From a virus (lineage: Duplodnaviria; Caudoviricetes): DNA of 51,757 nt. Below the pieces are notes generated by a model. It saw nothing but the letters and a program-made list of their open reading frames with translations, did not search any database and had not been told where the DNA came from. Positions within the stretch are counted from its first letter, which is position 1. Each line of letters opens with the position of its first letter. Both the position numbers and the translations under genes were made by a program. Below are positions 1,544-43,572 of the stretch, in pieces. The DNA lies in IMG/VR virus record IMGVR_UViG_3300036717_000008, positions 1 through 51,757 of that record. One strand, 5' to 3'.

Positions 1544-1948
1544 ATGAATTACGGATTTAAAGATACCAAGTTTGAAGTAGAGACAGAAGATGGACGTAAT
1601 TTTGTCATCATTAAAGATGCTGATTATGTATCTAAGAAAGGTATTATATACCGTATTCCAATTGGTGCAACTACTGATGGCGCATCAACTCCTCAGGTCA
1701 GCTGGAACTTAATTCCACCTTTTGGTAAGTACTGGAAAGCAGCTGTATTACATGATGCTGCCTATCGTAATAGTTTGTTAGTTTGGAATGGCACGGTATT
1801 TGCTAAAGCTAACTTAGGATTTGAGGATTCTAATGATTTAATTCTTGAAGCTATGCAATCATGTGGTGTCAATGAAGTAGAGTGTTACACAATTTATGAA
1901 GCTGTTGCTACCTGTGGTAAACTGTCATTTATAAAAGATAGAAACTAA
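1544..1948 (+). CDS. DUF1353 family protein (start could be 1523)
   Basis: Motifs IPIGATTDGASTP and YWKAAVLHDAAY are typical of DUF1353. Confidence 0.8.
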   Translation: MNYGFKDTKFEVETEDGRNFVIIKDADYVSKKGIIYRIPIGATTDGASTPQVSWNLIPPFGKYWKAAVLHDAAYRNSLLVWNGTVFAKANLGFEDSNDLILEAMQSCGVNEVECYTIYEAVATCGKLSFIKDRN

Positions 1949-16571: not shown

Positions 16572-16772
16572 TCAAAACTTATAACAGTCTATCATGTCGT
16601 GTTCAACGGTGATAATTATCATTGGATGAGGCATAAAATCAAAAGCAAATATTATATCACAAACAAAAGATTTAATCTTTTCTGAGTCTTCGGTATATGG
16701 AATGCATCCAATGTACTGAGCTTCTATCAAACCATCAGGTGTTGTCGTCAAGCGATATATTGTCATAATCAA
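16572..16772 (-). CDS. Hypothetical protein
   Basis: Tightly packed ORF with ATGA overlap. Confidence 0.6.
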   Translation of the reverse strand: MIMTIYRLTTTPDGLIEAQYIGCIPYTEDSEKIKSFVCDIIFAFDFMPHPMIIITVEHDMIDCYKF

Positions 16773-17764
16773 AATTTCAGTTCCCTTAAACCAAGTTTGT
16801 TAACGTCCTCTTTACCATCTTTTCCCTTTTTATAAACTCCCCAATTAAAGCCAAATTGAGTTTCTGATCTCATGTTAAATACAGCACCATCAACAGGAGA
16901 TGTGAATTGCATCTCAATATACTCTTTGTGTTTCTTTCCTAATTCAGTCTCCTCTCCTATAGGACATTGTGATAATACACTATCATGACAATTAATCATA
17001 TGATCCCATCTTAGATTATTAGATTCTGTGTGTTGTTGTAATTTACTAAATGCCATATTAGTAATCATGCCTACTGTAGATTGAGGAGGTAGTGCATAGA
17101 TTTCTTTCCATTTAGCTTCCTCAACTTCGTGCCAAGTTATAGTTAAAGGATGACCATGAAGATTATAAACTATGTGGGTCCTCTCAACTTGTTCACGCAA
17201 TCTTCTATGCCAATCTCTAATCTCAGGAAATAAAGAGTGGTACGTTAACAGAAACCGATCAGCTTCCTCTTGAGGTAACATTATCTTACCACCAGATTTC
17301 TCAAGAACATTCATCCTAAATGGGTTGGTTGTAATACCATAATTCGCCGAATGGCAAGTCTGTTTTGCAAGATAATAATAACGTTCATTTACTGGCCAAT
17401 TATCAGAGTCTTTGATTAAGGAATCTAACTCTTTAAAGAACGGCAAAGTCTTAATAGACTCAATAGGTGAATTGATAAAGGTGTTAATATCAAATTTAAA
17501 ATCAGAACTAATCTGATTCCTCATTCGTTTATTCCATACCTCAGCAAACACCTGTATAGCAACATAGACATGGGGTTTAACACCATGAATAAACAATTTA
17601 CGAAAATCAGCATTCTTACAAAGGTAAGCTACTATTAATGCCTCAGCTCCTGATTGGTCAGTTTGAACAAATACTTTAAGTTTAGATCTTTGCTCCTCAG
17701 TGAAGATTGAAATGTCATGTGAGGCGAGATAATAGCTACACTTGTTATAGAGGTCGCTACTCAT
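16769..17764 (-). CDS. polA: DNA polymerase family A, C-terminal catalytic part (+1 frame relative to the N-terminal ORF; possible own ATG at 17764)
   Basis: Motif A FVQTDQSGAEA, motif B AKQTCHSANYG, PQSTV, motif C INCHDSVL. Confidence 0.92.
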   Translation of the reverse strand: MSSDLYNKCSYYLASHDISIFTEEQRSKLKVFVQTDQSGAEALIVAYLCKNADFRKLFIHGVKPHVYVAIQVFAEVWNKRMRNQISSDFKFDINTFINSPIESIKTLPFFKELDSLIKDSDNWPVNERYYYLAKQTCHSANYGITTNPFRMNVLEKSGGKIMLPQEEADRFLLTYHSLFPEIRDWHRRLREQVERTHIVYNLHGHPLTITWHEVEEAKWKEIYALPPQSTVGMITNMAFSKLQQHTESNNLRWDHMINCHDSVLSQCPIGEETELGKKHKEYIEMQFTSPVDGAVFNMRSETQFGFNWGVYKKGKDGKEDVNKLGLRELKF

Positions 17765-19514
17765 TAGGCACTCCATCAGCAATGTAGATTTCTCTCATTG
17801 ATTTTTCTATGTTAGCTAAGTTTCCTCCAAGTCCACGCTCTTTCCATTCTCCGTTAGGTAATAGACGTTTCTTTTTAAACAGGGCTCTACTACCCAATCG
17901 AAATGATTTAGTACCCCCAATTGTCCATTGACAACTATCCCGCATCATATCCTCAGTACTAATCCATGGCAAGAATCTTAACCGGGTTGTCTCTTTCTTA
18001 ACTTCACGGTATGCACATATAAGATTGATAACAGGATTATCATGCTTTAAAGCTAGTCTATACAAGGCTTTCTTTCCTAATGATGGCGCCCTTTTTCCAT
18101 CGACAATAGATGGTTTGCCTCTAGCAATAATAGGATAACCAAGCATCTCATGAAAATATTTCACACACTGAGGATTAGATCCAGCAAACATTCCTAACTT
18201 CTTTTTGCCACGAATTTCACCTAATGCTTTCTCACCTACGAAATATTCTATGAGCCTGTTATACTGAAACATTAAGGCATCATTCTCTTTTACTTTATCA
18301 TCTATCAACTTACGATTTACTTTGATACCATTTAAGGTTGAGATAAGATAAGGACGTATACACGCCATCGCATCATTGATAGAAGATTCAAGTCCTGGAA
18401 TAGTTTTAGCATACTCTGTAACAGCTTGTTTAATAAGGCCCATTGTGTATACGTCTTTACCACAATACTTCATCCTATTAACCATTTGATCGTTAGTTCT
18501 ATACCCTTGTGAGTCTTCATCTTTATGAAACTTCTCCCAGGTCCAGTATGACGTAGCATGACCTAATGACTTCTCTAAGTCAGGAAAACATCTATGAAGA
18601 GCTATCAATGTATCATATGAAGATGAACCCAGTGGGATATGATATTTAAGTGCAAAGACAAGAAAGTCAAAACAAGCACCATTGTGAGCGACAGTGGTAT
18701 TCCTACTGATTCCGATAGCAAGGGCTTGTAACACTTGCGGAACCTCAGGAAAAGCAATTCTATAGTTGTAATCAAGAACAGGAACAGAATAGACAGTCCT
18801 ATAATCCAAACTAAAACTAAAGCATTGTAAATTACATTCTTCATAATCAGTCTCTATGTCTATTAACAGATCCTTATCTTTAGTGTCTCTTAAGATCTCT
18901 ATTACCTCTTTTGGATGAGGGAAGATCTTATAAATTGGTTTAGGTCTTTCACATTCTCTTTGCCAAACGGATGTGCTGAATAATATTTGCTTACACTTCC
19001 AGGTATCCCGACGTAACCAGAATGCATAGTTTGTCCTTTTAGTCCTACCATGCCTTTTGACATCTCCCTCATCCTCATCCTCCCCTTCATCACCTCCAGT
19101 AAATACTTCATCGTCTGGGGTATAACCATCAGATAAAGGATTGGATTGTTTCTCAACATCTTTAAATATATCCACGGCTTGTTGAGGTAAGTATGAACAT
19201 ATAGCGGGTATTCCATTGACATAAAATAATGATCCTCTCATCTCATGAAGAGAGTTCTTTAAAGTTTCAGGTAAGTAATGATGCATCGTAGGTTCACCTA
19301 ATAATAGTAAACACTTTGTATTAGGTAGAAATGGAGACTTATCATCCTTAAGTCTCACATCACACATCATACTATTAAGCTCTGGTTGAAGACAGAAGTT
19401 GCCGAACATAACTCCTCCATTACCTGATAATAGACGGGTTATATCAAAGCGACTTTGGTTTGACATAATGATTGTCAAACCACAGTATTTGAATTTAGGA
19501 AGAGACCTTAACAT
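17757..19514 (-). CDS. polA: DNA polymerase family A, N-terminal part: degenerate UDG-like domain, 3'-5' exonuclease and thumb
   Basis: Exo motifs IDIETD, AHNGACFD, YCGKD; SNPQ, TKSFRLGS, NLANIEKSMREIYIAD; ends at TAG. Confidence 0.9.
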   Translation of the reverse strand: MLRSLPKFKYCGLTIIMSNQSRFDITRLLSGNGGVMFGNFCLQPELNSMMCDVRLKDDKSPFLPNTKCLLLLGEPTMHHYLPETLKNSLHEMRGSLFYVNGIPAICSYLPQQAVDIFKDVEKQSNPLSDGYTPDDEVFTGGDEGEDEDEGDVKRHGRTKRTNYAFWLRRDTWKCKQILFSTSVWQRECERPKPIYKIFPHPKEVIEILRDTKDKDLLIDIETDYEECNLQCFSFSLDYRTVYSVPVLDYNYRIAFPEVPQVLQALAIGISRNTTVAHNGACFDFLVFALKYHIPLGSSSYDTLIALHRCFPDLEKSLGHATSYWTWEKFHKDEDSQGYRTNDQMVNRMKYCGKDVYTMGLIKQAVTEYAKTIPGLESSINDAMACIRPYLISTLNGIKVNRKLIDDKVKENDALMFQYNRLIEYFVGEKALGEIRGKKKLGMFAGSNPQCVKYFHEMLGYPIIARGKPSIVDGKRAPSLGKKALYRLALKHDNPVINLICAYREVKKETTRLRFLPWISTEDMMRDSCQWTIGGTKSFRLGSRALFKKKRLLPNGEWKERGLGGNLANIEKSMREIYIADGVPNE

Positions 19515-19912: not shown

Positions 19913-20473
19913 TTACAACGATTGACCACCAGTTGGCAATTCAGCAAGACAATAGATCTCCTTAATTTCAGGATAGTTGTCAATGAGGGGTTGCTTAGTC
20001 TTGGGATGTAGCAACACTTTACCAACTTTAATACCCCTAGCCAATTCCTCTCTAGTGGGTGAAGCAGTCTTAGGATTGGCCTCATTTTTAATCAAAGCAT
20101 AAGCCAACACTTTCTTAATATCCTCAGTAGCAGGATTTTCCCAATTAGTTTCTTCAGGAAGTTCAAGCTTCTTACGGAAGTCATTCCACCTTTGGCGACA
20201 AGCTTCAGTCTTGTCTACAATAATTCCACCTTCATTACTGACCTGAATTGTCATGTACATTGCACTGGGCTTAACACCAGCTACAACCACTGGTTTAGTG
20301 TCATTACCAACAGTCATATCTACTGTATCTGGTGCAGCGATTTCAGTCTTGATGGTAATCATTGGATTACCTTTGCTATTCGGGGCTAAAGACAATTCCG
20401 TAAACCGGATGATATAATCTGATTTTGTTACAAAAGGAATTGACATGTTCCACTTAATTGCATTCTCACTCAT
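19913..20473 (-). CDS. Single-stranded DNA-binding protein candidate (DUF669-like)
   Basis: DYIIRFTELSLAPNSKGNPMITIK pattern; next to the Sak4-like ATPase. Confidence 0.5.
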   Translation of the reverse strand: MSENAIKWNMSIPFVTKSDYIIRFTELSLAPNSKGNPMITIKTEIAAPDTVDMTVGNDTKPVVVAGVKPSAMYMTIQVSNEGGIIVDKTEACRQRWNDFRKKLELPEETNWENPATEDIKKVLAYALIKNEANPKTASPTREELARGIKVGKVLLHPKTKQPLIDNYPEIKEIYCLAELPTGGQSL

Positions 20474-20527
20474 ATGTTTTATTTTGTTGTTTACTTAATT
20501 ACTGATCGTAGTTTGTGATCAGTAAAT

Positions 20528-20719
20528 TTATTTCTCACTTTTATTCTTTTGCTGTGAGATAAATTCTCGTACTTGTGCAACATATTCTGAGACTACCTCA
20601 GACATTTCTTTCTGCACTTTTTCATAGTCATCATAAGAGTAAAATACTCTAGTATGACCTTGACGGGTTACGACGTTTAGAACAAACCCATTTGCTAATG
20701 TTTCAAGTTTAATTTCCAT
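20528..20719 (-). CDS. Hypothetical protein
   Basis: MEIKLETLANGFVL ORF in operon. Confidence 0.65.
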   Translation of the reverse strand: MEIKLETLANGFVLNVVTRQGHTRVFYSYDDYEKVQKEMSEVVSEYVAQVREFISQQKNKSEK

Positions 20720-20722
20720 ATA

Positions 20723-21613
20723 CTATTTTGTTGCTGGTGTTATTTGTTGTTTAGTGTACTTCAAGAAAGTCTCATATGTCGCAGGTATTTTAGTTGGGAT
20801 ATTCTGTAATCCTGATGCCTTAGCATCAAAGTTATCATCTCCACAAGTTTGCCAATAGTAAAATGTTTCACCAGTAAACATCTTCTGGCATTCAATAAAC
20901 TCAGATTTAGTCATCCTAAAATCTCTTAAAGTTTCGTCTTTAGGTTCAAGATTCTTACGAGCCGAGAATTGACGAAACCACATAGTGTATTCCTTGACTA
21001 ACTTATCACCAAATTTACCTGTTAGTAAAGGACGAATCTTACCTGTGTACAATCCAGGTTGGCCAGGTGAGGTAGGCTTATCAGCTTTCTCAGCTTCGTG
21101 AGTTAGGGTTATAACATCACACCTAAGATTCTTGATGATAGAATGTATCTCACTAAACCATGTGTCTTTAATATTCCACTGCTCAAACTTATTAAAGTTT
21201 CCATCTTGTGTTATTGTGGCAGATTTACCAAACTTATCCCACCAACTATGATAGATAGTCTCCATGTCAGATAGAGAGTCTATTACTAAGGTCTGATTCT
21301 CTGTGAGACGGGGCGCCTCATTATTGAACCAGACTGTAAGATCATCTTTACGATTCTCTAACTTTGACATTTTGTAAAATGGAATCTGATAGATCCAAGT
21401 GCATCCAACGTGTGATCCTAATCCACGATCAAGATTCAAAACCATACAGTTAGGAAAACCTTTCTGTTTACCATCAGGTGTTCCTAGTATAGACCAGTTC
21501 TTACCAGAACCACCAGCACCCTGTATACCTAGACGAATCTGTTGTTTAACTGTTTCATCTGATAATGGCAATGCTGATTTGGGAATATAAATATCTGTTG
21601 TCATATCATTCAA
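20723..21613 (-). CDS. AAA_24/Sak4-like P-loop NTPase (recombination)
   Basis: IRLGIQGAGGSGKN, LNLDRG, TLVIDSLS, LTHE, IRPLLTGK. Confidence 0.75.
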   Translation of the reverse strand: MNDMTTDIYIPKSALPLSDETVKQQIRLGIQGAGGSGKNWSILGTPDGKQKGFPNCMVLNLDRGLGSHVGCTWIYQIPFYKMSKLENRKDDLTVWFNNEAPRLTENQTLVIDSLSDMETIYHSWWDKFGKSATITQDGNFNKFEQWNIKDTWFSEIHSIIKNLRCDVITLTHEAEKADKPTSPGQPGLYTGKIRPLLTGKFGDKLVKEYTMWFRQFSARKNLEPKDETLRDFRMTKSEFIECQKMFTGETFYYWQTCGDDNFDAKASGLQNIPTKIPATYETFLKYTKQQITPATK

Positions 21614-21941
21614 GAAAGAAAATGTCTACTCGTTTGTTCTGATACTCATACTGAATTACATCTTTATCATCACCATAACCGGAATGAACTGCTCCACGAT
21701 CACTAATCTCCACTAACCCAAATTGCCGTAATGCACTCTTCATCCAATTAATACCTTGATGTGTAGTTTTATGTGGATAAATAATTATGTCAAGATCTTT
21801 ATTGCTAAATCCTTTATGTAGTACTGACCCTCCAAGAGCTACATGATAGTGATTATACACACGTTTAAGTTTAAGCTCAAGCTGTCTAACTAAATCAATA
21901 GCTTGATCGAGTGTCCATTGTAGTTGTGGTTCAATTTTCAT
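21606..21941 (-). CDS. Minimal Pol-beta-like nucleotidyltransferase
   Basis: VALGGSVL....SNKDLDIII and RVDIFF (GS + DxD + third Asp). Confidence 0.75.
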   Translation of the reverse strand: MKIEPQLQWTLDQAIDLVRQLELKLKRVYNHYHVALGGSVLHKGFSNKDLDIIIYPHKTTHQGINWMKSALRQFGLVEISDRGAVHSGYGDDKDVIQYEYQNKRVDIFFLE

Positions 21942-22432
21942 ACTATCTCCATTACTTTTTGTTGTAGGTCCATCAAGGACCCGATGTTTAAAATCGTGTG
22001 ATCAAAGGTTGCATTGTCAAGTTCAACCTCTGAAGCATGAACATCACCATAGTCATGATTTCGCTCTACCCTGATAACTATTCCACCATTTCGTTTCACC
22101 CACTCATACTCATTAATGAATCTCACGTCAGGAACAATTAAGACATCATGGTTGATAGACAATCTTTCCCTTGCATCTTCCATCTTTTTAATCCAGTAAT
22201 CTACACCAAACAATTTACGCCTAAAATCTGTACCCCAACCCTGTAGAATACGGCGGAAGTTATCTTTATGAAGTTCAATGTACTCAACACCATAGCCTGT
22301 TGCATGAGAAACTTCAATCTTAAGTTGTGCAGCAAAGCTATACTTAATTGATTTAGGATAATGACACAACAGTATATCTGCTATTGTATCCTTACCTGCA
22401 CCTTTCTTACCTGATATTCCAATGATTTTCAT
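21938..22432 (-). CDS. Deoxynucleoside monophosphate kinase
   Basis: IIGISGKKGAGKDT, FAAQLK, RRILQGWGTD, VPDVRFINE, HASE. Confidence 0.92.
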   Translation of the reverse strand: MKIIGISGKKGAGKDTIADILLCHYPKSIKYSFAAQLKIEVSHATGYGVEYIELHKDNFRRILQGWGTDFRRKLFGVDYWIKKMEDARERLSINHDVLIVPDVRFINEYEWVKRNGGIVIRVERNHDYGDVHASEVELDNATFDHTILNIGSLMDLQQKVMEIV

Positions 22433-23356
22433 TTAGTCGTTATAATGCATGGGGTTGAATTGTTTAACATCAAAATCTCTCTTCAGTAAACCATCCATAA
22501 TTAATGGATTATTATGTTTACAGACATACCAAAAGTCGCACTTGCCATATTTCTTATTACATGACCCATTAACAATACCTTGTTTAGGGAATTGATTATT
22601 TTTAATGGCAAGAGATAAATCTTTACAAACCTTAATGACACCCTCTTTAAACTCATCTATCTCTTCAGGTTGATAAACAAAAACATCGGAGGATTGAAAT
22701 CTAACCTCATTGATCTTAGGTTTAACATATATGCCATCAAACCGAGCACCAATTTGTTGACGAGAAATCTGTCCTAAAATACTATCAGGATGTTTCTCAG
22801 CAAACAATTTCAATCCTAACATGTACCCTCTAGGAGAATTCTTTAACTCATACTGACTCAAATGATCTTTAGCATTCCATGATGAAGTTGTTTTCCAATC
22901 TGTAATCAACCATATCCCATTTCGTTTCTTACCTATACGATCTATGGTACCACACCAGTTAAATACATTATCCTCATCACGATAGATCTCCTCAGAGAAA
23001 GTCTGTTCTACAGCTGGTTTATCATTTAGAATCAAAACCTCAAAGTCAACCTCTTGCTTAACAAACAGTTCCCAAGTCATTAAGGCTACAGCTGTCATGT
23101 GATTAACATCGCTAAGCTGCATTGATTTACTATTATCAATACGAGGTATGCTAGCAAAGGCTATGATAGCCTGTTCTCTGGCAGTAGGAATATGACCACC
23201 AGTTAAGTACATAATTTCTATATACTTATGAACTCCTATACCATAGATCATCTTAGCTGGCATAGCTTTGGTCTTATAGCCTTGCACAACTGTACGATAT
23301 AGATCCAGAATACAGTTGCTATGACCTAATGCTGAAGATGAGAGATTGATTTCCAT
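22433..23356 (-). CDS. PD-(D/E)XK exonuclease (Cas4/RecB-like)
   Basis: GIGVHK, VEQ, GTIDRI, ITDWKTT; N-terminal Cys plus C-terminal C......CDFWYVC cluster. Confidence 0.85.
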   Translation of the reverse strand: MEINLSSSALGHSNCILDLYRTVVQGYKTKAMPAKMIYGIGVHKYIEIMYLTGGHIPTAREQAIIAFASIPRIDNSKSMQLSDVNHMTAVALMTWELFVKQEVDFEVLILNDKPAVEQTFSEEIYRDEDNVFNWCGTIDRIGKKRNGIWLITDWKTTSSWNAKDHLSQYELKNSPRGYMLGLKLFAEKHPDSILGQISRQQIGARFDGIYVKPKINEVRFQSSDVFVYQPEEIDEFKEGVIKVCKDLSLAIKNNQFPKQGIVNGSCNKKYGKCDFWYVCKHNNPLIMDGLLKRDFDVKQFNPMHYND

Positions 23357-23601
23357 TACTTTTTATATTTGTTTTTCATGATGGCTATAGCAGGAATAAC
23401 AATTCCTACTGACGCAGCAAGTTGTCTAGCCTTTTCAAATTGTGGATTAGCTTGTAACACATGTTGTTCCATTTTACGAACATGAGATTGTTGCTCAGGA
23501 CGAGTAATACATAGATAATGACTAAAGTGTTCTGTTACTTGTTCAGGAGTCATAGCTGTTAATTCAGCAGCAGACATTCCTATACATTGTTCTATGGTCA
23601 T
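23356..23601 (-). CDS. Hypothetical protein
   Basis: TAATG-coupled ORF. Confidence 0.65.
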   Translation of the reverse strand: MTIEQCIGMSAAELTAMTPEQVTEHFSHYLCITRPEQQSHVRKMEQHVLQANPQFEKARQLAASVGIVIPAIAIMKNKYKK

Positions 23602-23602
23602 A

Positions 23603-23995
23603 TTATTCCATTACTCCGCAAGGGAGCCAGGTTTTTCCTTGGTCTAGGGAGTGCATCCAGTAATCCTTCAAAATGTTTGTTCTATAATCGGTATCTCTTA
23701 ATATAATATAACGCTGGCCATTGGACATATAAGTGAATTGAGTTTTGTGCATTTTATGCAAAGCTTCAATCGGAGCATACCATGCATCAATAGGCACTTC
23801 CTCCGCTCTCCACGCGCGCAGTTTCTTGGTCGGAGGTTCGGGGGCGACTCGCCAGTTTAAATTGGTGTCGAAAAATGGATTTGTTACTTTAACCCAACAA
23901 TCCTCTGGATATTCATATTCAATATCCTTCCCGTCAGCGAACGCCTTAATTACAGGCATCAGCTCCAGTATTTTCTTTGCTTCTTCTCTTGTCAT
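23603..23995 (-). CDS. Hypothetical phage protein (MTREEAK..L.PVIKAFADGKDIEY family)
   Basis: 130-aa ORF with a pattern common in small phage proteins. Confidence 0.7.
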   Translation of the reverse strand: MTREEAKKILELMPVIKAFADGKDIEYEYPEDCWVKVTNPFFDTNLNWRVAPEPPTKKLRAWRAEEVPIDAWYAPIEALHKMHKTQFTYMSNGQRYIILRDTDYRTNILKDYWMHSLDQGKTWLPCGVME

Positions 23996-24078
23996 AAATT
24001 TAATGCACAGATTTTCACCAAACAGGATAACAGACTGATGACGTTTTTGTGTGCCCCATAATCTCCTCGGTAACTGTT

Positions 24079-24228
24079 TTAGTTTTCCGCACGGTCAGCC
24101 GGTTCGGTAAAGACGGATTCGCGGGATTGTTGTTCGGCGAATTGTTTCTGCCGCATCTTTTCGAGATACTCAGTTACGGCTTTATCAGTCGCCTTTTTCT
24201 CTTTCCATTCTTCGTAAGTCATTGTCAT
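24079..24228 (-). CDS. Small hypothetical protein, 49 aa (not in ORF track)
   Basis: Manual translation MTMTYEEWKEKKATDKAVTEYLEKMRQKQFAEQQ...; A-rich upstream. Confidence 0.55.
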   Translation of the reverse strand: MTMTYEEWKEKKATDKAVTEYLEKMRQKQFAEQQSRESVFTEPADRAEN

Positions 24229-24253
24229 ATGTTTGTTGGTTTGGTTTGCTAAA

Positions 24254-24340
24254 TCACATCAGCAGCATGTAAATTAAAAATCCGATACCGAACGCAATTA
24301 ACTCGATGTCAAATAGCTTATCGTCATACTTGTTGCTCAT
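24254..24340 (-). CDS. Small membrane peptide, 28 aa
   Basis: MSNKYDDKLFDIELIAFGIGFLIYMLLM; ATGA overlap with the upstream stop. Confidence 0.45.
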   Translation of the reverse strand: MSNKYDDKLFDIELIAFGIGFLIYMLLM

Positions 24341-24930
24341 AACATCCTTATAATCTTAATCTCTTTGTTATCTATCTTGTATTGAATGTTATCTAACCCA
24401 TCAAGCTCTATCTTAAGTTGTTCAACATCCTCATTAGACAAGATCAATCCACTCTTATGAAAGGGTTTAATCTCATCACCCTCAAGATAATCATTCAGTT
24501 CACGTTTCCACTTAGGAGCTTCCTTTACATCAACAAAATCAGAACCATGAGGTAAGTCAGTAAATGTTTCTCTCAGTTGAATTATGACTCCAACACCTTT
24601 CTTACGAGCTACCTTACATCTCTCCCACAGATCAATCCACTTCTGTTTATCATCAGACTCTTCTCTTAAGTAAAGCCATGCTTGATTGATTAGAAGATAT
24701 AAAGTATTCATAGTGTAACGTCCTGATAGACGAAACACTTTAGGTTTACCATCATCAATTATTTCTTGAAGTTCCTTTGCAGCCCATCTAGCATAATCCT
24801 GATTGTAATAGGTTGCAGTTGATTTTCTACCCCAACCAACAGGCTTCTTCCTGACAACTAAATCTATAACACGCTCAACAGTTTTCTTGTCAGGAAAAAT
24901 AACTGTTATTGGTTGTGGATTATCTGACAT
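24337..24930 (-). CDS. Hypothetical protein
   Basis: 197-aa ORF directly downstream of the tRNA. Confidence 0.75.
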   Translation of the reverse strand: MSDNPQPITVIFPDKKTVERVIDLVVRKKPVGWGRKSTATYYNQDYARWAAKELQEIIDDGKPKVFRLSGRYTMNTLYLLINQAWLYLREESDDKQKWIDLWERCKVARKKGVGVIIQLRETFTDLPHGSDFVDVKEAPKWKRELNDYLEGDEIKPFHKSGLILSNEDVEQLKIELDGLDNIQYKIDNKEIKIIRML

Positions 24931-24956
24931 GATATGTTATTACAGTTACTTAAAAT

Positions 24957-25033
24957 TGGTTCCAGAGGCAAGGCTTGAACTTGCTACTCACTATTTAGTA
25001 ACTAGTGCGTTTTACCAATTAAACTACTCTGGA
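24957..25033 (-). tRNA. Atypical tRNA, 77 nt, with expanded 9-nt anticodon loop GUUACUAAA; identity undetermined
   Basis: TCCAGAG TA GTTT AATTGGTA AAAC G CACTA GTTACTAAA TAGTG AGTA GCAAG TTCAAGC CTTGC CTCTGGA A CCA. All four stems pair perfectly, with D-loop GG, T-loop TTC and encoded CCA. Confidence 0.9.
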
Positions 25034-25099
25034 AGTCAAGTTTGCTATTAGAGATTATCGTGGGAATACGCATAACTTCACGTTATAAAACCATAAACC

Positions 25100-25245
25100 A
25101 CTATACCTTATGTTACTGTTCAACTATAGGTATTAAGCCAGCTCAGTATTTAGACAGGTGAACAACCTGTATTCTGACTGCAATCACAATCTTCTATTAG
25201 ACAGAACTAATAGACACGGAGTGTATCAACAGTCAGTGGCTAGGG
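25100..25245 (-). ncRNA. Candidate multibranch structured RNA upstream of the tRNA
   Basis: Nested stems AGCCA/TGGCT, CTGACTG/CAGTCAG, ACAGGT/ACCTGT and TCTATTAG/CTAATAGA, plus an adjacent ATACCT/AGGTAT hairpin. Confidence 0.5.
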
Positions 25246-25256
25246 GATGAGAGAAA

Positions 25257-25355
25257 TTATTTCTTCACTCGGAGAATGTATAATATGGCAAGTGAACATC
25301 CTAGAAATGATCCTAAGATGTTGGAAAAGACAAGCTCAGAGAAATGAATTGTCAT
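25257..25355 (-). CDS. Small membrane peptide, 32 aa
   Basis: MTIHFSELVFSNILGSFLGCSLAILYILRVKK; first ORF after the sigma-54 promoter. Confidence 0.5.
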   Translation of the reverse strand: MTIHFSELVFSNILGSFLGCSLAILYILRVKK

Positions 25356-25396
25356 ATTGTGGTTAAAGAATTTAATAGTTGTGGCAATATTATGTA

Positions 25397-25413
25397 AGCA
25401 AGAATCGTGCCAA
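25397..25413 (-). promoter_or_regulatory. Sigma-54 (-24/-12) promoter for the tRNA/replication operon
   Basis: TTGGCACGATTCTTGCT is a perfect match to TGGCACG-N4-TTGC; intergenic. Confidence 0.9.
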
Positions 25414-25474
25414 CTAATCACAACATATATTATGTTATATTAGATTATACTATGTATGTATCGTTAAAGATTTA

Positions 25475-26368
25475 TTAGATCTTTTTCAACACACTGTATC
25501 GTTTAATTATTTGTTCGAGTGACCTAACATTAAGTTCAAGTTTAAACTCGGAAGACATAATCATATCTCGGAAGGATCCATTCAATAGTTCAGCTACATC
25601 TTTTTCTTTATGGAGGATCTTCCCAATCTCTTGCATGATGTCTGGTATATCACATCTTCTCTCTCTCAAAGGTTTGATCTTAAGAACAAAGGTTGATATA
25701 CGAGCGTAAAGATCAAGCCTAAACAACTTATCATTAACCATCTCCATTAAGTTACGATGTGTAGCACATACTATTCTACAGCTAATCTCAACCTCTTCTG
25801 TACCACCAACAGGACGTATGTATCGTTTACCATCTATTGGCTGTAATGCATTTAATAGCTTAGCTTGAATCTCAAGTGGCAAATCACCAACCTCATCAAG
25901 AAACAATACTCCACCTTTAGCAACTTCCATCATCCCTTTCTTGTCAGTCATTGCACCAGTAAATGATCCTTTCTTATGTCCAAATAGCTCTGATTCAATC
26001 AATTCTTTTGGCATTGCAGCACAGTTGATACGACAGAATTTAGCATCTCGATCACCAATCATGGCGCGAGCTATCAACTCTTTACCAGTACCAGTCTCAC
26101 CTAAGATTAAGACTTCATCGTCAATCATTGATAACTTACGAGCATCATCTTTTAAAGCTACAGTATCAGAGTCTATTGATATGAATTTATTGAGCCATGT
26201 CTCACATCCAGGAGTTGTGTTTAACAGGACAGGTTTGTCATCACGAATCTCAATTTTATAAGGTAACTTAAATGCAGCAATGTGCATCTTAGCACCATCA
26301 ATTAGATTATTCTGCAACATCAAGTTCAGAATATCTACCGGATCACTTTGTTGTGGATTGTTGGACAT
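25475..26368 (-). CDS. Sigma-54 enhancer-binding protein (bEBP) AAA+ domain, with no receiver and no HTH
   Basis: LGETGTGKE, INCAA, ESELFGHKKGSFTGA, GGVLFLDEVG, QAKLL, RIVCATH, FRLDLYAR, PLRERR, NVRSL; ends right after sensor II. Confidence 0.95.
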   Translation of the reverse strand: MSNNPQQSDPVDILNLMLQNNLIDGAKMHIAAFKLPYKIEIRDDKPVLLNTTPGCETWLNKFISIDSDTVALKDDARKLSMIDDEVLILGETGTGKELIARAMIGDRDAKFCRINCAAMPKELIESELFGHKKGSFTGAMTDKKGMMEVAKGGVLFLDEVGDLPLEIQAKLLNALQPIDGKRYIRPVGGTEEVEISCRIVCATHRNLMEMVNDKLFRLDLYARISTFVLKIKPLRERRCDIPDIMQEIGKILHKEKDVAELLNGSFRDMIMSSEFKLELNVRSLEQIIKRYSVLKKI

Positions 26369-26369
26369 A

Positions 26370-26555
26370 TTATTTCTTTTTAGTTATAATCATGGCAAAC
26401 ATATAACCAAGCATACCCACTAGCATTAGTGGCCATAGAAAAGCCATGATAATACACATAGTTGTATTATCAGTTTTGGGCTCTATTTTTTCGTTGTGAA
26501 TAAAAATCCCAAACCAAAATGGGATTAATACAATATACAACAATATAATATTCAT
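26370..26555 (-). CDS. Small two-TM membrane protein
   Basis: Two hydrophobic segments, FLWP motif. Confidence 0.65.
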   Translation of the reverse strand: MNIILLYIVLIPFWFGIFIHNEKIEPKTDNTTMCIIMAFLWPLMLVGMLGYMFAMIITKKK

Positions 26556-26899
26556 TTCTTTTTTCCTTTTTTATTAAAGACTCGTTCGTTCCACGCTTTC
26601 CATAATGACATTGCTTTATCACCTGTGTAGGTTAGTCTGTGATTAGCTGTCACTTGGAAAGTTACACAAGGTATCCAGGTATCAAGAAGTCGTTTACGGC
26701 TAGCCTCTTCAAGCATAGTTACAGGAGTAAGACTGCTTAATCCTGACATAAAAGCAGGAGCATCACAATCAAACTCATGACCATGAACTGTTGGGAATTT
26801 TGGTTTGAAAGCTCGTTTGTAATTACCACATGTAGTTACCCAACTATGCCATGCGTATTGACATTTACTTAAATCTACCACTATTCTATTATTTTTCAT
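26552..26899 (-). CDS. Hypothetical protein
   Basis: 115-aa packed ORF. Confidence 0.7.
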   Translation of the reverse strand: MKNNRIVVDLSKCQYAWHSWVTTCGNYKRAFKPKFPTVHGHEFDCDAPAFMSGLSSLTPVTMLEEASRKRLLDTWIPCVTFQVTANHRLTYTGDKAMSLWKAWNERVFNKKGKKK

Positions 26900-26906
26900 A
26901 TCACGA

Positions 26907-27092
26907 TTATGCCATAATTACGCCACAATTAATCCAGGTTCGGATAATTGTATCATAACTTACACTAGAGCCATCAATCTCATCTTGACTTCGTACATGC
27001 ATTATAGTATCACCCTGCCAAAAGACAAAACCTTTATCAGTGCAGACAACACTATAAATTGGTTTAGTTTTATTTAACTTTTTCTTTTTCAT
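26907..27092 (-). CDS. Hypothetical protein
   Basis: Packed ORF, likely start MKKKKL. Confidence 0.55.
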   Translation of the reverse strand: MKKKKLNKTKPIYSVVCTDKGFVFWQGDTIMHVRSQDEIDGSSVSYDTIIRTWINCGVIMA

Positions 27093-27094
27093 AA

Positions 27095-27328
27095 TTAATC
27101 TCCACATTCTTCTTTAGCTTGTTGAATAGCCTCTTCCTCCTCACCCTTTGTTAACTCAAAATCCTTTTCAAGCAAAGGCTGTGGCTTAGTTGATAGTATC
27201 TCCCAAGATTCAGGATCATCAGGTTCCTCAGGTGCACCATACTTATCTCTGTGTCCTTTCATTCCCCTGTGATACTCTAATGTAACCTCAACCTCAATCT
27301 CACGGGTTACTACTAATGTTATTGTCAT
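27095..27328 (-). CDS. Hypothetical acidic protein
   Basis: ATGA overlap; G.RDKYGAPEEPDDP motif. Confidence 0.65.
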   Translation of the reverse strand: MTITLVVTREIEVEVTLEYHRGMKGHRDKYGAPEEPDDPESWEILSTKPQPLLEKDFELTKGEEEEAIQQAKEECGD

Positions 27329-28266
27329 ATATCAATTCCATTTCTAAACCCCATAAATATAGGGTGTCGTAGTTTATCTTTTTGACCAACAGGTTTATAT
27401 TTACCAACAATGAATTTACCAAGATACTTATCTTGATTCATCCAAATTCTTTTCCTTAATTGATTTGTCAATCCTACACCTGTCCCAACATTGACAGTGT
27501 ATCCATCAGGATGTTGACATATAAAGGCTCCTAATGTATTCTTAGGAATCATATTATCCTGATGACTACTTCTATCCATAGCACCAAGGGCATTATGATT
27601 AGTAGGATTAACATTCTCCATCTGCTCCTCAAATCCTATAATCAATAATTCAGTTCGCAAGTATCTGGCAAACTTAACTAATATCTGTTCCTTTAAAGTT
27701 GACCTGTTATCTACAGTTCCTTTCTGGATATATAAACCATTAGGGTCACGAAAACAAATACCCTCTCCACCCAAATCTTCTATTGTTCGTAACTCCAAGA
27801 ATAAAGAATTAGCATTAGAACAAACATGTGGAAAGGAAAATTTAAATGGTGGTATAGACCAACATCTAAGATCTTTATCTATGGATCTCATGCGCTGTTC
27901 ATAAGTCATCCTCTCAAGATTAAAGTTATCAAGCACACGAAATTGAATAAGATCTGAATCCTTATGTTCACGGCTCATTACAATAGACTCAATCTCAGAA
28001 TAACTAAAAGATCGGTTATACAACTCCATATCATATCCACCCGGTAGAAGCATTGATCTGTCACGAATTGATCTGTTAGGAATAGGCTTTAGACGCTTAG
28101 ATAACAATGTACCATTAGCACGAATAGCCCTTATACCATCAAGTTTTACAGAGCATAGTACAGGGTATCTTAGACGGGACATTGCTTCTAGAATGTTATC
28201 ATCAGTATGTTCCACATTTGGTGGTAACAATGATGCTGCTGACATTGGACAGAATTTTCTTTTCAT
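27325..28266 (-). CDS. lig: ATP-dependent DNA ligase (minimal type)
   Basis: Motif I KLDGIR, YDMEL, FRVLD, GEGICFR, VKF, LGAF, VGTG, LRHPIFMGFR. Confidence 0.93.
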   Translation of the reverse strand: MKRKFCPMSAASLLPPNVEHTDDNILEAMSRLRYPVLCSVKLDGIRAIRANGTLLSKRLKPIPNRSIRDRSMLLPGGYDMELYNRSFSYSEIESIVMSREHKDSDLIQFRVLDNFNLERMTYEQRMRSIDKDLRCWSIPPFKFSFPHVCSNANSLFLELRTIEDLGGEGICFRDPNGLYIQKGTVDNRSTLKEQILVKFARYLRTELLIIGFEEQMENVNPTNHNALGAMDRSSHQDNMIPKNTLGAFICQHPDGYTVNVGTGVGLTNQLRKRIWMNQDKYLGKFIVGKYKPVGQKDKLRHPIFMGFRNGIDI

Positions 28267-28269
28267 AAA

Positions 28270-28452
28270 TTAAAAATAGCTTAAACACCAGTTATGATTA
28301 AATATACTAATTGTCAAATGATAATGTGTACCATTTCTTACAAAGATAATTTGCCAACATACAAATTTATCAGGGCTAGGTTTTACTTTGTAATGTACAC
28401 AACAAAATTTTCTTTTCATAATTTTATTCATCATCTTCTTCTGTATTTCCAT
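28270..28452 (-). CDS. Small hypothetical protein (true start probably near 28419)
   Basis: Fills the gap between helicase and ligase. Confidence 0.4.
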   Translation of the reverse strand: MEIQKKMMNKIMKRKFCCVHYKVKPSPDKFVCWQIIFVRNGTHYHLTISIFNHNWCLSYF

Positions 28453-30739
28453 CTCCTAAATCAGTAGGAGCTTCATCAGTTTCATCTTTCTCCCATTCCT
28501 TAATCATCTGCTCTACAACCTCTTTTCTATTCTCGTACTTCTCGATAAGTCCATACCAATTCTCACCAGGAGATCGTACTACTTTAGTAAGACATCGCAA
28601 TCTGTGCATAACAACACTAGATTGCTCTTCCTCAACTGTACCTTTAAAGAACAGAAATTCTTGTAAAGTGTTAGATAAGGAATTAAGCCTACCAGCACGA
28701 GCTGATCCTTGAACTAAATCAATACCACTCCAACATGGACCGATAGTAACTTTTCTAGGTCTAGTCCACACATACTTAATGTCCTCCTCATAAGCATAAC
28801 CAGACTCTTTATGTCTAACTTTCCCTGGCTCAACTTTATCTTTAGGATTCTTATGAGTTTGATTCCATTTATCAATCATCTCTTTCCACTCTTTAAACCC
28901 TTCAACACTTTCGTTCCATCTAGTACAAAGTTCATCAGTATGATGTAATGATAACCCTACACCACCAGCTTTGTAAGTGTAGATACAATATAAAGATTGT
29001 CCAGATTGAAACTTATCAATCTCACGCTGACGTTCCTCTTTGTTCTGATTACCCAATCTATACTCTTTAGGTATGTCTTCAAGATTTCTATCTTGTACAT
29101 CATCAAGCATCATATCTTCAAGAGTTACACCCGCAGCATCAAAAATATCCTTATTAGCCATTACCTGTTTCTTAAGTTTCTGTTTAACAGATAATTGTGT
29201 TTGTCCACCGCCCCAAATTAAAGAGATATTATCACGACTAATGCCATAGTCCTCAATTAGAATTCTAACTACAGCAATGATAGTTTGTTTATTCTTAGCT
29301 GCCAGCGCAGCAGCATAACCCTCTTTAACATCATGAACCATCTGTGCAGCAAAGATGTACCGTTTTGAGTACTCTGCTGCCATTAGTAACTGACCTAACT
29401 CAATCATTGCTAAAAAGGCAGGATTGTCTGTTACCTGCTCCTTTAATTTTGCTTTACGGGCTAAGTATCTTTCCCATGCAGAATTAAACTCTTTACGAGC
29501 ATCATATTTAGCATTAGCGGGAGGGAAATCCATAACCCTCACAGAGTTTATGGCATTAAACTGCCACCTAACACCCTTAACCCTGACGATATAATCATCA
29601 AGATCATCCATCAATCTATCTACTGCTGTAGCATTATAGTCTTCAGGATCACAGTTCTCACCACAAATTGCTTTAGCATAAGTTGGCCACATTGCACTGG
29701 TTAATCTGGCACCAGGAATTCCAACAGTAGTACTAATATCTTTACGAGTAGCACATGCAAATGCTTTAAAATCTGCTACTCGTTGACCAGGTGTTGCAGA
29801 GATAAAGATAACAGTTGTGTTATCAGGAATGTCAATATACGACATTATGATTTTACTTTGTGTACTATCAGGATTTTTAACAGATTGACACTCATCAAGT
29901 AGTAACACACAAGGATTAATCATTGATTTCCATTGCCAATTAGTAACCTCTTCACCCTTTTCAATGGTATTAATTTCCTCAATCCATATTTGTCCTGCTC
30001 TAGTGTGCAACTTCTCAATATTTATAACCTCAGTCTCAGTGATAGGATCAATACCAAATTTGCTCTTTAGTACTCTCTTAGTTTGCTCTACAACAGAGTT
30101 ACGAGTAATGGCTATATAAGGCATATGACCCCATGTCTTACCCTTATGGAAATTCATGTCCTTAAGTCGTCTATCAACAGCACCCTGAATGAAAGTCTTG
30201 CCGCTGCCCGGGGCTGCTATCAGCATTACAGCACGATAACGCTTTACTACTAACTTATCTAGCATTTCTGCTGCACTTTTCTTTTGGAAATAATAGAGGT
30301 TTGCTTTCTCTTTTTCGGAGGGGACCAAGCCATAATCTGAGTCAATATTTTCTTTTGGCTTTTCTGGTTGATTGTCACGAACAATAGATAGCTTTTCCAA
30401 AACGGGTTCTGTAACCACACTATTGTTACCTTGTTTATAATTGACATTATCCCTATTCTCATCTTTAACAGTTTCAACTCTTGTGGCATTATCATTTGCT
30501 TCTCCTAGTTGTTTGTTTAGATTATCTTTTAAAGCAGTACAGAATGATTTGACATCATCAATAGTAACCTTTATATCACAGTTAGGTTGGCTATTAATCC
30601 ATGTGCTGTCATACCCTACCGTGGTATAAACATCTCGCCACGTTGAGATAGACTTTATACTAAAATAGCTAATCAACTTATTACATATAGCTTGTACAGC
30701 TAGACGTTGACGCTTGTCATTCTTTTCTTTTGGTGTCAT
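28424..30739 (-). CDS. Superfamily 2 helicase
   Basis: YFQ, APGSGKT, LLLDECQ, SATP, ERQREIDKFQ, AGGVGLSLH, QGSARAGR. Confidence 0.9.
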   Translation of the reverse strand: MTPKEKNDKRQRLAVQAICNKLISYFSIKSISTWRDVYTTVGYDSTWINSQPNCDIKVTIDDVKSFCTALKDNLNKQLGEANDNATRVETVKDENRDNVNYKQGNNSVVTEPVLEKLSIVRDNQPEKPKENIDSDYGLVPSEKEKANLYYFQKKSAAEMLDKLVVKRYRAVMLIAAPGSGKTFIQGAVDRRLKDMNFHKGKTWGHMPYIAITRNSVVEQTKRVLKSKFGIDPITETEVINIEKLHTRAGQIWIEEINTIEKGEEVTNWQWKSMINPCVLLLDECQSVKNPDSTQSKIIMSYIDIPDNTTVIFISATPGQRVADFKAFACATRKDISTTVGIPGARLTSAMWPTYAKAICGENCDPEDYNATAVDRLMDDLDDYIVRVKGVRWQFNAINSVRVMDFPPANAKYDARKEFNSAWERYLARKAKLKEQVTDNPAFLAMIELGQLLMAAEYSKRYIFAAQMVHDVKEGYAAALAAKNKQTIIAVVRILIEDYGISRDNISLIWGGGQTQLSVKQKLKKQVMANKDIFDAAGVTLEDMMLDDVQDRNLEDIPKEYRLGNQNKEERQREIDKFQSGQSLYCIYTYKAGGVGLSLHHTDELCTRWNESVEGFKEWKEMIDKWNQTHKNPKDKVEPGKVRHKESGYAYEEDIKYVWTRPRKVTIGPCWSGIDLVQGSARAGRLNSLSNTLQEFLFFKGTVEEEQSSVVMHRLRCLTKVVRSPGENWYGLIEKYENRKEVVEQMIKEWEKDETDEAPTDLGDGNTEEDDE

Positions 30740-33142: not shown

Positions 33143-33159
33143 AGCAATTATCATGCCAA
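33143..33159 (-). promoter_or_regulatory. Sigma-54 promoter
   Basis: TTGGCATGATAATTGCT; intergenic and correctly oriented. Confidence 0.88.
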
Positions 33160-35626: not shown

Positions 35627-36181
35627 TTAAAATGGGTATTGTATAATTTCTCGTATTTTGTCAGCTTGCCATTTCCATTCATTAATAGGAGACCAACCAA
35701 CACCAACACCAACACTCAAGACAGCATAATAAATGGTCGTGGAAGTCATATGAGTAATGTTTTCATAGTGAGTATACATAGTTGAACGAGCTGCACATGA
35801 TGCAGCATGTGCAGCTTGTTTAGCACTATAATCAATTGATAATACGGCAGCCTCACAAGCCCCAAAGCTAGCTTTATCGGCTTCATTAACGGTAATATAT
35901 GATGGCTCTGTTAACCAACGCTTCGCTGCTTCAATTGCTTGTTTTGGTTTATTATTTTCAGGGTATTTTTCTTCAAACTTAAATAATACATGCTCTGCAC
36001 AAGCAATTGCGATCTTGACTGAATGATCTTTGTTTAAACGATTAGTTTTTCTTAAAAACCAAATCAACCAATTTCCATGGTGACACTCATTCCATGCACG
36101 TATTGGATCATAATCAACTGATTCCATGAATTGAATAGATTCATAGCACGGGTTTAAGTCTAAAAATTCTTGTTTTGTCAT
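35627..36181 (-). CDS. Imm5-like/Ala-rich early protein
   Basis: AIACAEHVL..FE..YP....PKQAIEAAKRWL. Confidence 0.65.
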   Translation of the reverse strand: MTKQEFLDLNPCYESIQFMESVDYDPIRAWNECHHGNWLIWFLRKTNRLNKDHSVKIAIACAEHVLFKFEEKYPENNKPKQAIEAAKRWLTEPSYITVNEADKASFGACEAAVLSIDYSAKQAAHAASCAARSTMYTHYENITHMTSTTIYYAVLSVGVGVGWSPINEWKWQADKIREIIQYPF

Positions 36182-39651: not shown

Positions 39652-39668
39652 TTGGCATGAATCTTGCT
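39652..39668 (+). promoter_or_regulatory. Sigma-54 promoter for the packaging/late operon
   Basis: TTGGCATGAATCTTGCT. Confidence 0.9.
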
Positions 39669-43284: not shown

Positions 43285-43572
43285 ATGAATGAAACCATCG
43301 AACAACTTCAGGTTAAAACTATCGAACAACATATCATCCAAGTTAAAACCTTGCGTCGTGATATTGATGCTCAAATTCAACAGGTTAAATCTTTGAAGTC
43401 TTCCCGTGAACTATCATTGGTGATTACCAAATTGCAAGAAGGAGTTATGTGGCTTGGTATGGAGCTTAAAAGAGTTAATGAACTCACTGGTGTTGGTACT
43501 AATCCTTACCCAAATAGTAAGGACCCATCTAATACGAAGATTGAACCAACTGCGGATGGACTTAAACTTTAA
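43285..43572 (+). CDS. Acb2/Tad1-hairpin-like small protein
   Basis: SRELSLVITKLQEGVMWL motif. Confidence 0.5.
   Translation: MNETIEQLQVKTIEQHIIQVKTLRRDIDAQIQQVKSLKSSRELSLVITKLQEGVMWLGMELKRVNELTGVGTNPYPNSKDPSNTKIEPTADGLKL

Follow-up and report, generated by a model that had tools for sequence, protein, structure and literature searches.

A strain-variable tRNA gene of a peat phage and tRNA-shaped elements at the same site in its relatives

The stretch of DNA analysed here (the window) is a complete phage genome of 51,757 bp (51.8-kb) with direct terminal repeats, obtained from peat metagenomes, and ARAGORN called one tRNA only in its entire length, a tRNA-Ser(act) on the minus strand at 25033..24957. 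The gene lies in the gap between an activator gene and an open reading frame designated ORF197, where the following features were recorded in the direction of transcription:

25475..26368, minus strand: AAA+ activator with a sigma-54 interaction domain (Pfam PF00158, E 6.7e-55)
25398..25412, minus strand: perfect sigma-54-type promoter match, TGGCACGATTCTTGC, lying upstream of the tRNA by 365 nt (one of 4 in the window versus 0.24 expected)
25257..25355, minus strand: possible small ORF of 32 aa, hydrophobic, between the promoter and the RNA-covered region (ORF list, sequence alone)
25060..25233, strand not assigned: RNA-covered region, a 174-nt contig of RNA library X16 with word depth 177, which stops 26 nt before the tRNA
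25034..25060, minus strand: conserved 5' flank, ..CCCACGATAA..AAACTTGACT, which runs up to the 5' end of the tRNA and has U at -1 (L033 alignment, L001 sequence, pattern matches)
24957..25033, minus strand: class I tRNA gene (allele W) of 77 nt, of which 24957-24959 encode the CCA (ARAGORN; RF00005, 49.7 bits; identical in contig X11)
24997..25033, minus strand: strain-variable 5' half of the tRNA (L042/L043 alignment, X14 contig, column counts)
24989..25007, minus strand: anticodon arm, CACUA/UAGUG with 9 intervening bases (24994-25002) and ACU at 24997-24999 (sequence, ARAGORN, Infernal, GCC allele)
24337..24930, minus strand: ORF197, which starts 26 nt after the tRNA (homologues in 24/25 related loci that reach the region)

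The presence of a tRNA at 24957-25033, proposed in an initial annotation that gave no strand, was confirmed by both programs applied to it, ARAGORN and Infernal. In a 401-nt search with the Rfam tRNA family (RF00005) the gene scored 49.7 bits (E 7e-10) versus a gathering cut-off of 29, and the match extended over model positions 1-71 of 71 as a full-length cloverleaf. A whole-window Rfam search at the gathering threshold and a search of the phage's own genome both overlooked the gene, so that filter-dependent negatives are weak evidence here.

Direct reading of the sequence gave an acceptor stem UCCAGAG/CUCUGGA (7/7 pairs), a D stem GUUU/AAAC (4/4), an anticodon stem CACUA/UAGUG (5/5) and a T stem GCAAG/CUUGC (5/5), such that all 21 stem pairs of allele W are Watson-Crick. 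U8, A14, G18G19, the T loop UUCAAGC, U1-A72, discriminator A73 and the encoded CCA are present, and the variable region comprises 4-5 nt and thus does not form a Ser-type arm. The perfect pairing, encoded CCA and missing Ser arm described earlier are borne out by these readings, as is the impression that the gene has not decayed. The stretch 24300-25500 recurs in peat metagenomes, in at least 14 runs that belong to at least 11 studies (some of the runs possibly being the source sample); contig X11, for which no flag as a possible source was raised, spans 24343-25500 and differs from the window at 3 places, 0 of them in the tRNA. An assembly slip as the origin of the extra bases in the anticodon loop was rejected, since the independent X11 assembly carries the identical loop. 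A real, intact class I tRNA gene is therefore well supported.

The Watson-Crick strands of the anticodon stem enclose nine bases, GUUACUAAA, and to this extent the 9-nt loop of the initial annotation stands. Loop size depends, however, on the manner of counting: Watson-Crick pairs only give 5 bp and 9 nt, while the ARAGORN structure and the Infernal alignment agree on a 7-nt loop UUACUAA (U33, A37, A38) closed by a G.A mismatch, and on these two models the arm is one of six tiers with a 7-nt loop, not a free 9-nt loop. A thermodynamic fold of the bare sequence favours another pairing in the arm because the loop repeats the ACUA of the stem, a result of little weight for a tRNA. A34 anticodons apart from ACG are rare in bacteria, and the earlier remark that an ANN anticodon is unusual there is upheld.

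The register of the anticodon was settled by a natural second allele. Two metagenome contigs (L042, L043), retrieved in one scan by a pattern with free loop length, have flanks equal to those of the window except for one base in about 360, and their tRNA (allele V) differs in having G1 opposite A72, G4 (G.U with U69), an insertion of two bases after position 7, and A26. Its loop, G-CUGCCAA-A, stands at the same place as that of the window and was called by ARAGORN as tRNA-Gly(gcc). The standard Gly loop of the sister allele occupies precisely this frame, and the anticodon of the window tRNA is therefore the central triplet ACU, one of the readings put forward at the outset, and the competing ACUA, CUA and UAC readings are contradicted. 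The loop of allele V, CUGCCAA, sits between the same G and A as that of the window, and since the G...A frame is common to both alleles it is part of this gene's design. Ambiguity persists in a different respect, in that no class is a clean fit for the amino acid identity.

At least two natural alleles of the gene exist, W (ACU) and V (GCC), and the differences between them are strongly clustered, with 8/77 tRNA columns changed versus 5-7/1071 in the flanks (Fisher p about 1e-6). A further contig, X14, has nearly identical flanks and an allele similar to V, again with the loop CUGCCAA, and shows the same concentration, with 7/9 substitutions and its one 2-nt insertion falling in the tRNA 5' half; its allele as reported is two letters off L042/L043 in the acceptor and linker region, and may be a third allele or an alignment artefact. 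Acceptor pairs 1-72 and 4-69 are Watson-Crick in W, and GxA and G.U, respectively, in V. The better acceptor pairing of W is consistent with selection on acceptor-stem pairing, and a chimeric V would fit equally well; V could be a chimera made by a recombination patch, which would account for the clustering of the allele differences equally well. ORF130 is about 80% identical between strains while the adjoining genes are 99-100% identical, and patches at 23603-23995 (minus strand) and about 26900-27000 are 10-25% diverged between otherwise 98-100% identical strains (L042, L043). Such divergent patches point to frequent mosaic recombination in the population. A diversity-generating retroelement behind the clustered changes was rejected, there being no reverse transcriptase among the ORFs scanned and no adenine specificity in the changes.

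Aminoacyl identity was compared with the bacterial determinant sets as given in the available part of Giege & Eriani 2023 (PMC9976931), in which tRNA-Ser is set apart by a long variable arm and G73, tRNA-Arg by A20, C35, U/G36 and A/G73 plus G2-C71 and C3-G70, and tRNA-Gly by U73, G1-C72, C2-G71, G3-C70, C35 and C36. Measured against these sets, a Ser identity was rejected (variable region of 4-5 nt, discriminator A), as was a Gly identity, with allele W possessing only C2-G71 and C35 and allele V only C2-G71, C35 and C36. The best partial fit was Arg, with 4/6 determinants (C35, U36, A73 and C3-G70), and this identity was also rejected, position 20 (the major determinant A20) being U and pair 2-71 being C-G. 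The earlier statement that U1-A72 with A73 matches no obvious class therefore holds against the sets in the part of that review available. An Arg-charged ACU tRNA would misread Ser codons. Bacterial tRNA-Gly(GCC) shares with allele V the loop CUGCCAA, C2-G71, and the G10-C25 pair with G45; the phage gene differs, by the same partially available source (PMC9976931), in A73 for U73 and C3-G70 for G3-C70, in G1xA72 in V, and in U1-A72 together with ACU in W.

Codon usage of the phage favours T-ending codons: GGT constitutes 51% of Gly codons, AGT outnumbers AGC (180 vs 60), and ACT, ATT and TCT are preferred. An A34 or G34 reader of these codon boxes would not be pointless for this phage.

The order ligase, activator, gap, ORF197 and nuclease is kept in 24/25 loci that reach the region, and polA lies further on. 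In L004, L023, L025 and L042/L043 an exact sigma-54 consensus closely follows the activator gene; in L030 and L022 it lies in the same activator-ORF197 interval, but 200-590 nt downstream. The four sigma-54-type promoter matches in the window (1789-1803, plus strand; 25398-25412, minus; 33144-33158, minus; 39653-39667, plus) stand ahead of gene blocks, and the phage appears to drive part of its programme via the host sigma-54. A promoter and terminator scan of 24300-25500 returned nothing above shuffled sequences. ORF197 matched no Pfam or PHROG family and had no usable ESM Atlas match; its AF2 model (pLDDT 81) gave Foldseek E values of at best 0.024, which is weak, and VIA Z scores, obtained with Stn1 winged-helix and R3H/KhpB-like domains, that did not exceed 5.9, which is under the stated noise level.

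The RNA data comprise library contigs only, which give neither strand nor RNA ends. The 25060..25233 contig of X16 (depth 177) is followed upstream by a contig of depth 4, and contigs of X15 cover ORF197 and the promoter region; the tRNA itself lies under no RNA-library contig, a gap in contigs that is not to be read as silence. Conservation of the 3' part of 25060-25233 extends to L001 and L023 and, less strongly, to L028 and L011. No Rfam family was matched in the stretch upstream of the tRNA, and the fold energy there is ordinary (z -1.26). The depth of the contig and the conservation of its 3' part suggest that an abundant RNA, possibly a phage small RNA, lies immediately upstream of the tRNA.

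The activator-ORF197 gap also holds tRNA-shaped elements in relatives of the phage. Rfam tRNA matches in this gap were obtained for L033 (37.5 bits) and L036 (32.3 bits), which with the window (49.7) are all above cut-off. A strict scan of our own, in which the T stem had to pair 5/5, the T-loop motif had to be present and an acceptor stem pairing 7/7 had to lie within 60-150 nt, found slot matches in 5/25 loci (window, L001, L011, L015, L023; 19.8 kb of slot in total) versus 2 matches in 1.07 Mb elsewhere in the same loci, and returned no element in the other 20/25 slots. All five have U at -1 and terminate 14-46 nt short of the ORF197 start, and three possess NCCA. The window element measures 74 nt without CCA and the other four 109-126 nt, with middles that are hairpins, are not anticodon arms and are unrelated to each other. 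The acceptor and T-arm stack is thus kept, with the rest varying, at a fixed place in the transcript in 5/25 slots. Common to the window, L001 and L023/L033 are the flanks AAACTTGACT before the element and CCAATTT after it, the body between having been replaced.

Two related Leu-like elements, one of them outside the slot and the other the L036 element with the Rfam match given above, were as follows:

L034 1501-1588, minus strand, and L035: Leu-like class II tRNA-shaped element with A73, lacking CCA, with a 10-13-nt 'anticodon' loop (outside the slot, G002/G003)
L036 1501-1613, minus strand: homologue of the Leu-like element in the slot of G014, with a different middle of 53 nt (paired acceptor-stem change)

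The G002/G003 and G014 copies have the same D and T arms, a paired acceptor-stem change and wholly different middles. We take the D arms of some slot elements to resemble, by eye, those of E. coli Ser or Leu tRNAs. The slot element of L001 (5449-5563) contains an internal hairpin, UCCAGA-GUG-UCUGGA, the arms of which are the acceptor strands of the window tRNA; it may be a trace of a nested cassette history or a chance occurrence.

The L001 and L011 elements come from our scan and hand parsing alone, and Rfam tRNA searches of the whole L011, L012 and L018 loci and of small windows of L011 and L001 gave no match. ARAGORN at default settings called no tRNA in L001-L031; with introns and a low threshold it made many calls, several of them inside genes, which serve as pointers only. 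No close DNA relatives of 20000-30000 were present in the phage collection, where a query with the tRNA retrieved nothing but various phage tRNAs, mostly annotated Gln, with similarity limited to 19-21 nt of the D arm. When viral and genome contigs, from which the window's own record was possibly excluded, were scanned for the exact pattern of the tRNA body, nothing was found, and a search for relatives with one neighbouring protein was also negative. Taken as a whole, the sequence comparison lends good support to a family-wide slot for tRNA-shaped elements, with the order sigma-54 promoter, slot, ORF197.

As the best explanation of this locus we tentatively propose that a tRNA or tRNA mimic is cut from the operon RNA and is selected for its acceptor/T-arm half, not for decoding. 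Transcription from the sigma-54 promoter would include the tRNA as part of the operon RNA, and tRNA-maturation enzymes would excise it, with RNase P acting at the 5' end and 3' processing at the CCA-AUUU end. RNase P prefers U at -1. Across the slot, selection would keep the acceptor/T-arm half and not codon reading; recognition by the maturation machinery or by proteins that bind the top half is proposed because the slot keeps the acceptor/T-arm, the -1 U, often the CCA and the position, and not the anticodon. The use of such an element might be transcript processing, by which the abundant upstream RNA would receive its 3' end and ORF197 a short 5' UTR, or alternatively that of a tRNA mimic or surrogate in conflict with host enzymes acting on tRNAs, and the ACU anticodon would be either a by-product of allele exchange or a re-specification. 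Evidence for this explanation is the occurrence of slot elements far above the control rate, their fixed position before ORF197 and the conserved sigma-54 promoter. Against it, no RNA contig lies over the tRNA, 20/25 slots were empty under the strict scan, both alleles keep canonical loops, and the D arm, anticodon stem, loop (U33, A37) and CCA are canonical, which gives the gene the look of a working decoder.

A stronger form of the same explanation, which is possible if rather doubtful, holds that the site is a cassette slot for interchangeable tRNA-shaped RNAs in which only the acceptor/T-arm/CCA half is selected, as a processing device or a mimic, and the bottom half can be swapped, enlarged or re-coded (GCC to ACU). 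As a processing device the cassette might depend on RNase P and serve both the abundant upstream RNA and the mRNA of ORF197; as a mimic it might be directed at host enzymes binding the top half of tRNAs. Known tRNA-like processing signals include MALAT1-mascRNA and mitochondrial tRNA punctuation. The arrangement here would resemble them in placing an acceptor/T-arm structure right after an abundant RNA and right before a coding region, and by the same logic RNase P cleavage would define both ends. The window element differs from those signals in being a nearly complete tRNA and not a reduced mimic, and it would be part of a sigma-54-driven phage operon.

An ordinary decoder, which we consider somewhat unlikely, would be charged, would read AGU (A34:U) and would supplement the T-ending codons, the GCC allele doing likewise for GGU/GGC. 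The canonical loop (U33, A37, A38), intact core and encoded CCA are as expected of such a tRNA, the codon preferences given above would provide it with a use, and allele W is found in several peat runs of different studies, with confirmation by X11. The SerRS determinants, however, are absent (no long variable arm, A73), relatives' elements in the same slot are incapable of decoding, and A34 in an anticodon other than ACG would be out of the ordinary for a bacterial system. Judged by the determinant sets in the available part of PMC9976931, moreover, the best fit to Arg, 4/6 without the major A20, would place Arg at Ser codons, and allele V is without the U73, G1-C72 and G3-C70 of the bacterial Gly set.

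A decoy or nuclease-resistant surrogate, an unlikely account in our estimation, would absorb or survive a host enzyme that cuts or modifies tRNA, with the changed loop and its G.A closure being part of the escape. Phage tRNAs evading tRNA-targeting defences via anticodon-loop changes are described in the available parts of PMC10264068, PMC11555353 and PMC11464382, and the changes between strains here are concentrated in the anticodon loop and 5' half. Phage-encoded elongator tRNAs, among them those proposed in the available parts of these sources to evade anticodon nucleases, resemble the present one in being a single tRNA gene in a lytic-type phage genome and in having a canonical L-shape core, an encoded CCA and a strain-variable anticodon loop. 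The present gene differs in its G.A-closed loop on a six-tier arm, its ACU without a Ser arm and the non-decoding look-alikes held by relatives at the same site. The phage also carries other candidate anti-defence genes, such as the first of the following entries, the other two being side observations:

43285-43572, plus strand: protein of 95 aa carrying an Acb2/Tad1 hairpin domain (Pfam E 4.6e-07), a candidate sponge for nucleotides used in defence signalling
35627-36181, minus strand: protein of 184 aa in which Pfam recognises an Imm5-like immunity domain (E 8e-12)
21606-21941, minus strand: ORF of 111 aa, weakly similar to a nucleotidyltransferase palm domain (E 0.003, below cut-off)

Weighing on the other side, no host, defence system, target tRNA or target nuclease is assigned, and a decoy does not predict the fixed position just before ORF197. 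A term search of the available text of PMC10264068 for enlarged loops, insertions and decoys gave no mention of them.

A recently disabled tRNA, i.e. a former tRNA-Gly(GCC) scrambled by a recombination patch or by mutation and now drifting without function, is in our view improbable. Its nearest relative is indeed the Gly-GCC allele, no RNA-library contig lies over the gene, 20/25 slots of relatives are without a detectable element, and the combination of ACU with mixed identity features fits no synthetase set in the part of PMC9976931 available. A drifting remnant is opposed, however, by the 21/21 Watson-Crick stem pairs of W, by the better pairing of W than V at 1-72 and 4-69, by the presence of W in independent samples, and by the recurrence of acceptor/T-arm elements in the slot far above the control rate.

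The initial annotation had further raised the possibility of a frameshift suppressor and of an amber-type reading of the loop, and a link of the tRNA to polA had also been entertained; the latter concerns these two genes:

17757..19514, minus strand: PolA N-part, 585 aa, ending ..AAT GAG TAG (PHROG 17)
16769..17764, minus strand: PolA C-part, with its own ATG at 17762-17764, GGAG 6 nt upstream, and the ATG overlapping the N-part stop (Pfam DNA_pol_A)

The C-part is in the +1 frame, and a four-base reading of TAGC would enter it exactly. In the family, however, where polA was examined in 31 related loci, it is split in all that show both parts, mostly about 60 residues earlier than in the window, in various frames and with spacers of 0-1300 nt, and the N-part homologues are all of 458-590 aa (120 of the 120 listed). 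L001 is split at the window's site with a 103-nt spacer that has further stops, and L023 has a single frame straight across the window's junction. Because sites, frames and spacers vary and the C-part has its own start, a split PolA with separately started parts is the family norm, and the proposed link between tRNA and polA fails. The two split sites are about 60 residues apart, that of the window and L001 lying just before motif A, and some relatives carry inserts of up to about 1.3 kb; the L001 spacer (11713-11816) includes a Shine-Dalgarno-like AAGGAGG and inverted repeats, and may be the scar of a mobile insert.

An amber suppressor was rejected, CUA being preceded by A and not by U33, the register lying on ACU and the genes being intact under code 11; TAG ends only 7/75 ORFs (a crude greedy set), and the genome is densely coding under that code. 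One gene alone, the Sak4-like gene, which ends in TAG and is followed one codon on in the same frame by a 63-aa ORF (20528-20725, minus strand), runs in frame into a next small ORF, and this arrangement, in which TAG read-through would fuse the two, was judged a probable coincidence. A +1 frameshift suppressor was likewise rejected, the extra bases being at the base of the loop and not by the anticodon, and the two polA parts having independent starts. With the +1 suppressors SufJ (PMC4238358) and SufB2 (bioRxiv 10.1101/2020.12.31.424971) the gene shares more than 7 bases between the Watson-Crick strands of the anticodon stem; in the available parts of these sources, SufJ and SufB2 have 8-nt loops with the extra base beside the anticodon, unlike the two extra bases here, which are opposed as G.A at the loop base, around a canonical inner seven and with no frameshift site in the genome that needs the tRNA. 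That a quadruplet or amber suppressor reads TAG-C at the N-part end and fuses both PolA ORFs is thus highly improbable: an unpaired stretch of nine could in principle offer an anticodon of four or five bases, but ACUA would match UAGU and not UAGC, the GCC allele fixes a triplet register, and 25/30 related whole records have no Rfam tRNA above cut-off, yet polA is split across the same phages.

Phage tRNAs are usually explained by codon supply and, lately, by escape from host enzymes that destroy tRNAs. The selection of an acceptor/T-arm half for processing or mimicry, which we tentatively prefer here, would add a different use. The tempting tie of an enlarged anticodon loop to a split polymerase gene was wrong and is removed, and what stands at this one site is a near-perfect tRNA, a different anticodon in a sister strain and look-alikes without a usable anticodon in cousins. 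If it is the top half that matters, the locus would be a bacterial-virus case of tRNA shape used beyond decoding, and would offer a natural series for which parts of a tRNA are needed by processing and defence enzymes.
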